Origin: an uncultured virus (IMG/VR IMGVR_UViG_2061766007_000286)
Taxonomy: Duplodnaviria; Heunggongvirae; Uroviricota; Caudoviricetes
Reading direction: 5' to 3' (one strand)
Virus record (IMG/VR): IMGVR_UViG_2061766007_000286
Length of the DNA stretch: 64,000 nucleotides
The first letter of the stretch is position 1; every line of letters starts with the position of its first letter. Of the stretch, positions 9,868 through 20,567 are shown one piece after another. Under the pieces are notes generated by a model, which ran no database searches, was not told where the DNA came from, and was given only the letters and a program-made list of their open reading frames with translations. The position numbers and the translations under genes are program-made.

Positions 9868-9951
9868 CGGGTACCAATGACTTCCTCCTAACCGAAACAA
9901 GCCAAGCTCTGTTCAACCAAACGTTGAGCAGAGCAAAGCCATTGGTACCCG
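9868..9951 (+). ncRNA. stem-closed small structured RNA upstream of tRNA-Arg
   Basis: CGGGTACCAATG/CATTGGTACCCG closing stem, inner GCTCTGTTCAAC/GTTGAGCAGAGC hairpin, asymmetric bulge containing CCTCCT. Confidence 0.5.
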
Positions 9952-9962
9952 ATTAAATTTTT

Positions 9963-10120
9963 GCCCCGTTAGCTCAGCTGGATAGAGCAGCGGTCTTCAA
10001 TTAGGAGCGTTCATGTGGAAGATCGAGGTGGTGGTCAAAACAAAATCCTCTCAGGAAACACATGAAATGAAACGTGCTGTATCGGAGAACATCGTAAGTG
10101 CCAACAACACACGACAACTC
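9963..10120 (+). tRNA. second allele or copy of intron-containing tRNA-Arg(UCU), truncated by gap
   Basis: same 5' exon (one substitution) and intron start as 10421; distal P2 sequence differs. Confidence 0.7.
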
Positions 10121-10420
10121 NNNNNNNNNNACCAAATGACTCAGAAGATGAACATCCGACTTGTCAACGGCAAGGTTACCACCATCGAAGTTCGTGGCGG
10201 TGCCAAGTTCCGCAACGGCGACATCGTTCGTCACCTCACCTCTCAGAAGAAGTGGGTGGTCGCCGATGCCCGTCCTGACAAGCGGCATCGCATTCATCTG
10301 ACGGCCAAGGCTGACAAGAACGAAAAGCTCCGCATCAGCCAGAACGTCATGGTGAAGGCTTAATCGACCATNNNNNNNNNNTCAGGGTGTCGGTGATCTC
10401 TTCACCGGCGCCCGTCTTTT

Positions 10421-10732
10421 GCCCCGTTAGCTCAGTTGGATAGAGCAGCGGTCTTCAATTAGGAGCGTTCATGTGGAAGATGGGATCGGTCAACGGCATG
10501 AATATCTCGTCGACAACACATGAAATGGAACGTGCTGTATCGGAGAACATCGTAAGTGCCAACAACACACGACAACTCCGAGGAAACCGAGACCAGGGAT
10601 CCGTAGAGACTATACGCACGTCGGCTGAAACGCCGAAGAAATAGTCCAGCCAGCAAGCCCGAAAGGGTGGTCATGGAAACATGATGCTGGATGCTAAACC
10701 GCTGGCCGGAGGTTCGAATCCTCCACGGGGTA
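10421..10732 (+). tRNA. tRNA-Arg(UCU) split by a group I intron (exons 10421-10455 and 10694-10732)
   Basis: joined exons give acceptor GCCCCGT/ACGGGGT, D arm GCTC/GAGC, anticodon arm GCGGT-CTTCTAA-ACCGC, T arm GGAGG-TTCGAAT-CCTCC. Confidence 0.9.
10456..10693 (+). ncRNA. group I self-splicing intron, 238 nt, no endonuclease ORF
   Basis: P1 CUU|C pairs with GGAG with a U.G at the splice site; P3 CGTGC/GCACG; GTAGAGACTA and AAGAAATAGTCC form P7; P8 TCGGC/GCCGA; terminal G. Confidence 0.88.
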
Positions 10733-10785
10733 CGATCTTTAACAGAGAGCATGCAGCTCTCAATCCAATAAAGGAGAGCAACTCA

Positions 10786-11178
10786 ATGTCGATTTCAACT
10801 TACATCACGGAATATTTCTTCAGACTCAAGTTCAAGAGTTCCAAGGGCGCCAACTTCGAGAAGTTCGCCGGAAAGCGTTTCATCGACGATCTCAACGACG
10901 GTGCTCTTACGTTTGAAGACGCATTCGGACTCGTCACCAGGATCTGCGAACGATACCAGGACGAGAAAAAGAAGTACTACGAAATCAGAGCCTTCGAAGA
11001 CGATGAGGAAGGATTCATCAACATCAATGTCATTTACGACGGCAACGGTCACGATAATGTAGTGTGGTCCGGCAAGTTCGAATGCGTATTGAACGTCAAT
11101 GGAATCAGCGACGAGCTCAATGACGCTCTCCGCTACCGGGTCATGATGGAAAACAAGCAGCTGGAATCCAGAATCTAA
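10786..11178 (+). CDS. hypothetical protein (divergent homologue of 11279-11668)
   Basis: starts MSISTYITE after AAGGAG; ends QLESRI. Confidence 0.6.
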   Translation: MSISTYITEYFFRLKFKSSKGANFEKFAGKRFIDDLNDGALTFEDAFGLVTRICERYQDEKKKYYEIRAFEDDEEGFININVIYDGNGHDNVVWSGKFECVLNVNGISDELNDALRYRVMMENKQLESRI

Positions 11179-11278
11179 TCCGGCTGAAAGGAGTAAGCAA
11201 CATGTCGAAANNNNNNNNNNTTTTCAATCAGACTGGGAGTCTGAACAACTGAAACAACAATCAACGCGGGAGGTTTAA

Positions 11279-11668
11279 ATGTCTTTCTCGAAAATGATAT
11301 CCGAACGGTTCGTGGATCTCAAGTATGTGAGTTCCAATGGGAAAGTTTTTGAATCGGTCGGCCGCCAGATGCTCAAGGGTTGGAAGAAATCCGGTCCAAT
11401 GCCCATCGCCGATGTGTTCGCCGACATCACCTGTATCTGCGAAACTCTCTGGGACACCAAGAAGATCATGTGCTATGCCAACGCAGAAGCAACTGACGAC
11501 CTCGAGGTCAGAATCGAAATCACTGGAAGCAAGACCGAATGTCGTGAAAAGCATCTGTGGACCGGCGTGTTCAAGATGTCGCTGTCCAATAGAGCCGAGG
11601 ATGAAATCAGCGAAGCTCTGTACGAATTCGGGCAGGGTGTGTATGACCAACTGGAATCCAGAATCTAA
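11279..11668 (+). CDS. hypothetical protein
   Basis: GGGAGG SD; ends QLESRI. Confidence 0.6.
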   Translation: MSFSKMISERFVDLKYVSSNGKVFESVGRQMLKGWKKSGPMPIADVFADITCICETLWDTKKIMCYANAEATDDLEVRIEITGSKTECREKHLWTGVFKMSLSNRAEDEISEALYEFGQGVYDQLESRI

Positions 11669-12706: not shown

Positions 12707-13429
12707 ATGACCAAGCAGGAAGAAATCACGTCTCTCGTCAAGGTCATCCGCGAACACGATTATCAGCCGGCCAGGGAACGTCTGTACGGTCTGATCGAAA
12801 ACTTCATCAGGGACATGGCCAAGAAGTATTCCAACGACCTCGTGTCCGTGGAAGAACTCGTCGGCGCCGGTTGGGATGGCGTCAACACCGCCATCGAAAG
12901 GTGGGACGAAAGCCGCGAATCTTTCCTCACCTACGCCCGCTGGTGGATCATGGACGCCCTCGACAAGGAGCGCATGGCTCACAGCGACCTGATCAGCGTG
13001 CCGCTCATTCTCCGCAAGCACGTCATGCGGCATCTGAACGACGCGAGCACCAAGGAACCGGCTCACTTCGCCGAAGCCGTGGCCGCTCTCGGTGCCAGCC
13101 GCACCGAAGACCGAATCGGGAACGAGCGGGACGTCGATGTCCGCGGTTCCGGGGAAGCGAACGCGGAAGGCTGGTATCCGAAGGACGAGAAGGCGATGGA
13201 CGAAGAGAAGATGTCGCTGGCTCTCGATGTGGAAGGATTCATCAACAGGCTCGACGCTCTCGAAGGGAAGATCTTCCGCATGCATTACGGGTTCAACGAC
13301 GAGCAGGTCGAGTACTCCAACAAGGAGATCGCCAAGACTCTCGGCCTCACCGCCGCCAGGGTCAAGTTCCTTCTCGACAAGTCCGTGCTCAGCGCCCGCG
13401 AATGTCTCGCCGGGTACGAAATCAAATAA
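12707..13429 (+). CDS. sigma70-family RNA polymerase sigma factor
   Basis: region 2 ARERL...MAKKY...EELVGAG...AIERWD...FLTYARWWI; region 4 YSNKEIAKTLGLTAARV. Confidence 0.85.
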   Translation: MTKQEEITSLVKVIREHDYQPARERLYGLIENFIRDMAKKYSNDLVSVEELVGAGWDGVNTAIERWDESRESFLTYARWWIMDALDKERMAHSDLISVPLILRKHVMRHLNDASTKEPAHFAEAVAALGASRTEDRIGNERDVDVRGSGEANAEGWYPKDEKAMDEEKMSLALDVEGFINRLDALEGKIFRMHYGFNDEQVEYSNKEIAKTLGLTAARVKFLLDKSVLSARECLAGYEIK

Positions 13430-20495: not shown

Positions 20496-20567
20496 CACCC
20501 TGTAGCTCAAGAAGAAGAGCTTGTGCCGATTAAGCACAGGATCTTGGTGCAAATCCAGGCAGGGTGT
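20496..20567 (+). tRNA. non-canonical tRNA-like RNA (loop CG-ATT-AA)
   Basis: cloverleaf CACCCTG/CAGGGTG, GCTC/GAGC, TGTGC/GCACA, CTTGG/CCAGG; D-loop lacks GG, G at position 33, T-loop TGCAAAT. Confidence 0.6.

Follow-up and report, generated by a model that had tools for sequence, protein, structure and literature searches.

A phage tRNA-Arg(UCU) gene divided within its anticodon by a group I intron that appears to have lost its endonuclease gene

The window analyzed here, a 64,000-nucleotide stretch of DNA from an uncultured Caudoviricetes virus in IMG/VR, raises the question of whether the 312 bases at positions 10421-10732 hold a working tRNA gene split by a ribozyme, and why such a ribozyme would be kept there. 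The parts of the locus mapped below, from 9868 to 10732, all lie on the + strand. We put at roughly 85% the probability of the following reading: this interval is a tRNA-Arg(UCU) gene, a group I intron of the bacterial tRNA type divides it between U34 and C35, the intron has lost its nuclease, and the tRNA is spliced.

Standard searches pass over the gene. Plain ARAGORN finds 13 tRNA genes in the 64-kb window and none at 10421-10732, while Rfam at gathering scores returns 12 tRNAs and no intron. With introns allowed, which is one of the checks that the original prediction had proposed, ARAGORN adds a 14th tRNA at 10421-10733, its anticodon loop interrupted by 238 nt, although it sets the cut one base too far to the left; the gene is therefore labeled Ser(gct), and the intron would then end in U. 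Only one cut, with exon borders at 10455/10456 and 10693/10694, has the 5′ site preceded by U and the intron ending in G, so that the anticodon loop around the cut reads CUU/c...g/CUAA. Removal of 10456-10693 by script gives a 74-nt product with a normal cloverleaf, which ARAGORN names tRNA-Arg(tct), in agreement with the predicted canonical tRNA and with the predicted position of the intron between U34 and C35. The 5′ exon (10421-10455) contributes the acceptor and D arms, the 5′ anticodon stem and C32-U33-U34. The 3′ exon (10694-10732) contributes C35-U36, the 3′ anticodon stem, the variable loop, the T arm, the acceptor and the discriminator A; CCA is not encoded. Inspection of the spliced tRNA by eye reveals A20, which we take to be an arginine identity element.

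Intronless genes in other viruses provide a separate view of the junction. An 18-mer of the 5′ exon occurs at 17 IMG/VR loci, comprising 14 intronless tRNA-Arg(tct) genes, one intron-bearing gene on a 132-kb viral contig (G001) and two truncated genes. The junction predicted for the window, CTT followed by CTAAACCGC, is also the junction of four intronless genes (L087, L090, L092 and L096), and this identity makes the join of 10455 to 10694 independently credible. A 16-mer across the exon-intron junction had only two IMG/VR matches, both of them chance occurrences inside protein genes, and was set aside. On two viral contigs (L082 and L093) only the 5′ half of a tRNA-Arg is present, ending a few bases past CTT CTAAA; judged by sequence, these half genes look like tRNA fragments left at integration sites. 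Of the 14 tRNA genes that ARAGORN reports with introns allowed, the split gene alone is a tRNA-Arg. In a crude ORF set of the phage, AGA is the commonest arginine codon (185/807) and AGG accounts for a further 158/807, such that the pair makes up 42% of arginine codons. Elsewhere in the window, ARAGORN reports a tRNA-Asn with the odd anticodon ATT at 20496-20567, and the Rfam tRNA model at its gathering score does not report it.

All group I elements could be placed within the insert at base-checked coordinates, namely P1 with its U.G pair, P10, P2 through P9, the P3/P7 pseudoknot and the terminal G; those named in the original prediction (P1 with U.G, P3, P7 as GACTA/TAGTC in DNA, P8 and the terminal G) are all among them. 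The P1 hairpin (10453-10465) pairs exon CUU (10453-10455) with guide GAG (10463-10465) and carries U10455.G10463 at the splice site, and P10 pairs guide UUAG (10459-10462) with 3′ exon CUAA (10694-10697). P1 has only three pairs and P10 only four. P2 (10468-10524), drawn from folds and covariation, consists of an 8-bp base (10468-10475/10517-10524) and a distal hairpin. The catalytic core (10530-10647), delimited by covariation and a base-by-base coordinate check, contains P3 (10530-35/10616-21), P4 (10540-45/10576-81), P5 and P5a (10550-58/10566-72), P6 (10582-88/10596-10602), J6/7 GUA, P7 (10606 and 10608-12/10642-47, read as G, bulged A10607 and GACUA on one side and UAGUCC on the other), P8 (10622-25/10632-35, with a GNRA-type loop) and J8/7 AAGAAA (10636-41). 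A three-way P9 domain (10650-10690) follows, built of P9 (10650-55/10685-90), P9a (10658-60/10665-67) and P9b (10671-75/10680-84), with GAAA capping the latter two, and the intron closes on omega-G10693. The G10608-C10646 pair beside bulged A10607, together with J8/7 AAGAAA, aligns to the RF00028 consensus; from work on Tetrahymena, we take these to be the catalytic residues. The minimum-free-energy fold of the whole precursor (z -4.35) recovers P2, P4-P6, P8 and P9 and misses the pseudoknot, and for that reason we do not rely on it.

Covariance models bear on the identity of the ribozyme in different ways. The Rfam group I model RF00028 aligns to 10490-10671 with 25.5 bits (E 9.3e-5) on a 271-nt query, for which its filters are laxer, and this score lies below its gathering cut-off of 50 bits; given 933 nt or all 64000 bases, the same model does not report the intron. 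An Infernal-type search with this model was to serve as a check, and the lack of any covariance-model hit was to count against the intron, so that with a match present below the cut-off such a lack exists only formally. Williams 2020 notes that RF00028 is without bacterial seeds, and used cut-offs of 18-20 bits; we regard the cut-off of 50 bits as belonging to the model and not to the ribozyme. Relatives of the intron score 36.2-47.8 bits with RF00028, and a member in a protein gene (L056) reaches 67.4 bits, above the cut-off of 50, which ties the family to the curated group I class. The decisive result comes from a family covariance model (R1), built from 15 relatives with the window, L015 and L035 left out. 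R1 matches 10515-10704 end to end with 174.7 bits (E 2.7e-46), compared with 19.1 bits for a truncated copy of the gene and 12.5 bits for the best unrelated match elsewhere in the 64 kb, a margin well past anything expected by chance.

To these scores, covariation adds evidence on the structure itself. An alignment (A2) was made of 18 tRNA-borne members, leaving out L006 and L013 (near-identical to L003), L054 (undelimited by ARAGORN) and 10 members outside tRNA genes. Across this alignment, the structure from P1 to P10 plus the cloverleaf is paired in 93.5% of 1480 cells, as against 35-41% in slid controls in which pairing partners were moved by 1-3 columns. Both sides have changed in 58 of 84 pairs, and none of 500 shuffles reaches any of these measures. 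By helix, the cells paired amount to 99% for P3, 98% for P4, 100% for P6, 99% for P7, 100% for P8, 90% for P9 and 100% for P9b. Compensatory changes occur in P3, P4, P5, P6, P8, P9 and P9b; by pair, they affect 7/8 in P2, 5/5 in P9b and 3/6 in P9. P7 shows no variation, and the omega-G column is invariant in all 18 sequences. The splice-site pair is U.G in 14/18 and U-A in 4/18, and P1 covaries as well, with CCU/GGG in L055. Support is weakest for P10, with 65% of its cells paired, and for P9a, which lacks conservation across the family. At the level of sequence, models and covariation confirm 10456-10693 as a 238-nt group I intron in a phage tRNA-Arg(UCU).

The family extends well beyond this phage. 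A degenerate core motif locates 17 loci in IMG/VR, 13 with a 3′ exon beginning CTAA and 4 with a different intron, and a second motif locates 39 viral loci. Combined, the motif searches yield 28 distinct cores: 16 in tRNA-Arg(UCU), one in a tRNA-Thr(UGU), one in a tRNA with a UAU anticodon and 10 without tRNA exons, the last apparently situated in protein genes. In GTDB, the first motif has 21 loci, of which 16 are tRNA-Leu(UAA) introns, mostly of Bacteroidales; the rest are two tRNA-Arg(UCU), two chance matches and one other, and the core of one of these tRNA-Arg(UCU) loci (L041) has the same sequence as that of a viral contig (L014), the two contigs being also equal in length (95,989). By distant blastn, 10383-10760 has no match among INPHARED phages. 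Taken together, the sequences suggest that the family is common in phages, mostly in tRNA-Arg(UCU), and related to bacterial tRNA-Leu(UAA) introns.

Individual members differ in host gene and form. The tRNA-Thr(UGU) member (L055, 683-952) is 194 nt long and follows C-C-U in the loop, with C at position 33, and its guide GGG in place of GAG is a compensatory change in P1. The 242-nt member in the UAU-anticodon tRNA (L063, oriented 565-962) has a guide, AUAU, that matches its 3′ exon AUAA, and that tRNA directly adjoins an intronless tRNA-Arg(tct). Two family-type cores (L042 and L043) lie about 1.1 kb apart on one 178-kb viral contig, outside tRNAs and apparently in protein-coding sequence. A 228-nt intron with the same P7 and J8/7 motifs and a tRNA-Leu-like core occurs on viral contigs of about 100 kb (L004, L005, L008 and L016), where its 3′ exon begins AACCCGGG. 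On L003, an Rfam 'skipping-rope' RNA (RF02924; 1014-1094, 49.7 bits against a cut-off of 36.7) sits between the intron-bearing tRNA-Arg and a tRNA-Gln.

Comparison with known introns shows which parts of this setting are familiar. In Williams 2020, the classical bacterial settings number four (Leu.3Ug, Arg.5Ug, fMet.2Ug and Ile2.5Ug), all of subgroup IC3, and are extended to 21, 17 of these being new. In the window, the cut follows the third anticodon-loop base of a tRNA gene, with U at -1 and G at omega, which places the intron in setting '3Ug'; the classical tRNA-Leu(UAA) intron, too, follows C32-U33-U34 in the loop. The suggestion that the insertion site may be unusual is only partly right, given this shared loop position and the presence of the family at 16 distinct viral tRNA-Arg(UCU) loci. 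The Bacteroidales tRNA-Leu(UAA) introns share the CUU/GAG P1, are near-identical to the window in J6/7-P7-J7/3, J8/7-P7′ and the start of P9, and in some cases also contain HNH ORFs. In contrast, the P10 of the window matches CUAA and not AAAA, its P3-P6 half cannot be aligned with theirs in sequence, and it is phage-borne. We provisionally assign subgroup IC3 from the likeness of the 3′ half alone to tRNA-Leu(UAA) introns (IC3 in GISSD, per Williams 2020). The alpha-proteobacterial tRNA-Arg(CCU) intron ('Arg.5Ug' of Williams 2020), likewise of group I, also interrupts an arginine tRNA in its anticodon loop, but in a different isoacceptor and at position 5, after the anticodon, instead of position 3, inside it.

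Closer in tRNA species are the tRNA-Arg-TCT genes of Beggiatoa (BOGUAY) and Thiomargarita, for which PMC4853749, citing MacGregor et al. 2013a, mentions putative group I introns. The interrupted gene of about 324 bases given there compares with 312 in the window; those introns lie on bacterial chromosomes and not in phage. Phage introns in protein genes belong to the same ribozyme class, and 10 of the 28 cores of the window's family lie outside tRNA genes. According to Hausner 2014 (PMC3984707), all phage introns known at that time were in protein-coding genes, despite the many tRNA genes of phages, so that an intron in a phage tRNA gene represents a setting unobserved by that account. A full-text literature search, mainly of sources other than subscription journals, found no account of a phage tRNA gene that holds a group I intron.

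Relatives indicate what the intron may have lost. Most are 590-650 nt long, with an ORF that opens with ATGTGG in the 5′ strand of P2, takes up the P2 loop and continues through P3-P6; in L003, this ORF encodes 169 aa with HNH_3 at E 1.6e-11 (Pfam). The HNH-bearing viral tRNA-Arg(UCU) introns (L003, L007, L014, L019 and others) share family, site and core with the window, which differs in having 238 nt and a 57-aa frame in place of 590-650 nt and a 169-aa HNH_3 ORF in P2. This open frame (10471-10644) starts MWK... in P2 and has a ...HEMERAVSEN... tail that reads through P3-P4. Neither an HNH nor any other Pfam domain was found in 10456-10693, the 57-aa frame has no HNH motif or Pfam family, and the predicted absence of a homing endonuclease ORF is thus borne out save for this remnant. 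The frame would be what is left of the endonuclease ORF of the family after the loss of some 400 nt, with the first and last codons kept; the distal P2 hairpin would correspond to the shrunken site of the HNH ORF, and the intron as a whole to a deletion derivative of the HNH-carrying family. Because the endonuclease ORF is not intact, the intron would be unable to home by itself.

Upstream of the split gene lies a conserved 75-aa gene of unknown function (ORF75, 10136-10363), with relatives at L020 1495-1725 and L098 1356-1580 and amino acid identities of 83% to G001 and 97% to L098. ORF75 stands just upstream of the intron-bearing tRNA in G001 and in contigs of two DNA runs (X3 and X4), as does its 3′ end in a contig of an RNA library (X18). 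It has no family in Pfam or PHROG and no usable lead from the protein Atlas, and as a single query in IMG/VR it gave 43 pattern matches, none of them confirmed. In L098, a near-consensus TTGACA/TATATT promoter accompanies ORF75, and the remaining 60 bases of that contig hold no tRNA. A terminator-like hairpin of 12 pairs with the tail GTCTTTT (10385-10413) ends 7 bases before the tRNA, and G001 has a homologous one at the same place. A promoter scan of 9868-11300 found no sigma-70-like site; the phage encodes a sigma-like protein at 12707-13426.

Further upstream is a truncated second copy of the gene (9963-10120; alignment A1), which holds the 5′ exon and the intron from P1 to P4′ only. It equals the first 158 bases of the gene save 2 bases and the distal P2, lacks the 3′ half, and at all three differences resembles G001 and not the full copy. 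Its distal P2 is 72.7% identical to that of L015 and 47.5% identical to that of the full copy at 10421. The second version that had been predicted here, with a different distal P2, is thus present in the window, but as a 5′ fragment that ends after P4′. A masked 10-base run and then ORF75 follow it, and before it comes a spacer, 'A' (9868-9962), known from contig joints in other samples and formed by a long hairpin and then a T-run. In those samples, spacer A lies between ORF75 and a single tRNA gene, with joints 10371->9868 (X3 and X18) and 10369->9868 (X4). The order in X3 and X4 is ORF75, 9868-10070 and 10529-10733, making one tRNA gene with P2 of the truncated-copy type. A 342-nt contig of X18 runs from the end of ORF75 through spacer A into an unspliced 5′ exon and intron of the full-copy type, and a 256-nt contig of a second RNA library (X20) contains unspliced intron and 3′ exon. 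No contig of the runs compared joins 10455 to 10694; as assembled contigs are no proof of absence and DNA may be present in the libraries, this bears neither way on splicing. Bins 10092-10123 and 10380-10411 are without cover in 4/4 runs compared, from which alone we draw no conclusion.

No record but that of the window shows the tandem layout, which is absent from X3, X4, X18, G001 and L098. Because a single tRNA gene appears in three independent runs and in a related contig, we regard the layout as not conserved; from the sequences, it would be a duplication peculiar to one strain or else a chimera assembled from two co-existing haplotypes. We accordingly view the upstream copy as a by-product of strain-variant recombination or of assembly, not as a working part. 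The join was conceivably mediated by the likeness of intron P4′-P6 to the ribosome-binding region of ORF75, which is speculation. Spacer and P2 variants at this locus form a mosaic across gut metagenomes of bovine, sheep and other origin. In L019, a 17-base D-arm piece (GTAACTCAGTTGGATAG) at about 25-45 is repeated just upstream of the intron-bearing tRNA-Arg at 63, another partial 5′ duplication at such a locus.

From this anatomy and the textbook group I pathway, we infer how the gene would be expressed. In the precursor, P1 would arise by pairing of C32-U33-U34 in the anticodon loop with the 3-nt guide GAG, the U.G wobble marking the cleavage point. Bound in P7, a free guanosine would attack after U10455, while the adjoining guide bases UUAG would hold the 3′ exon CUAA as P10. 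Terminal G10693 would then take the place of the free guanosine, and ligation of the exons would produce a normal tRNA reading AGA and AGG. The ancestor was probably a mobile intron with an HNH homing endonuclease gene in P2, its ORF running onward through P3-P6. What remains would be a passenger ribozyme on whose continued splicing the tRNA depends, and it may persist since precise loss would be rare and splicing would keep it harmless.

Whether the intron still splices is the point at which this account could fail, for the endonuclease ORF is gone, the RF00028 score is below the cut-off and the upstream gene fragment shows the locus to have been rearranged, all of which would fit a decayed intron in a tRNA pseudogene. 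However, the core helices are all intact and the conserved joining segments unchanged. G001, where ORF75 is followed by a tRNA-Arg holding a 240-nt intron and next by a tRNA-Lys, permits a direct comparison: 173 of 177 bases of the ribozyme core (97.7%) are identical to the window, whereas the DNA of the neighboring ORF75 is 79.7% and distal P2 52% identical. Core identity so far above that of ORF75 indicates purifying selection or recent exchange; in the latter case, the cassette would have moved laterally, and the likeness would not reflect selection for splicing. Since loss of function would also deprive a phage with 42% AGA and AGG among its arginine codons of the only tRNA-Arg in the window, we consider a pseudogene unlikely. 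The two 5′ halves (9963-10120 and 10421-10578) might instead be alternatives sharing one 3′ half, to give two tRNA-Arg variants (C16/U16) or a long intron containing ORF75. The first copy does offer an intact exon and P1-P5 on the same strand, 458 nt upstream of the other. That reading is scarcely credible given the single tRNA gene after ORF75 and spacer A in X3, X4 and X18, and after ORF75 and its own spacer in G001; moreover, ORF75's own leader occupies the place of the fragment in X3, G001 and L098 (with the promoter in L098), and a single D-loop base would be all that distinguishes the two products.

A functional tRNA could also be kept interrupted for a purpose. The original prediction suggested that splicing gates the supply of AGA-decoding tRNA, or leaves the anticodon unformed and so hidden from host anticodon nucleases until maturation, and both the insertion inside the anticodon and the phage's heavy use of AGA would suit a regulatory intron. 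We found no support for either idea and hold a regulatory intron to be very unlikely. The same family occupies several different tRNAs and protein genes, its relatives carry a homing endonuclease, near-identical exons are intronless in 14/17 loci, and the mature tRNA would be as exposed to nucleases as any other. Together, the HNH in relatives, the common intronless alleles with the same exons and the ORF remnant in the window point to a selfish mobile element that lost its nuclease, a history that would explain the data. In mixed infections, the intron may still make the tRNA gene uncuttable by the family's HNH nuclease.

The locus represents a known ribozyme class and a family common in phages, and introduces neither a new kind of ribozyme nor a new regulatory principle. 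It is a well-preserved example that stands out for its setting in a phage tRNA, its lack of a nuclease and the mosaic at its locus. Because standard tRNA finders and Rfam defaults miss the gene, this phage would be annotated as lacking a tRNA-Arg even though AGA is its commonest arginine codon. With its relatives, the locus indicates that phage tRNA genes, too, have been colonized by group I introns, and both stages of the homing cycle, with and without nuclease, are visible in the family. The strain-variant mosaic around the intron in rumen-type samples offers material on intron-driven recombination between co-infecting phages. Because the guide reads the near-universal C32-U33-U34, the family could hop among U34 tRNAs (Arg-UCU, Thr-UGU, UAU and Leu-UAA) and into protein genes of large phages. 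We tentatively raise the possibility that one mobile group I family occupies a large and all but undescribed niche in phage tRNA genes, and that its nuclease-less copies persist as immunity to HNH cleavage during co-infection. If so, the intron would be both weapon and shield in competition between phages, and not a neutral passenger.
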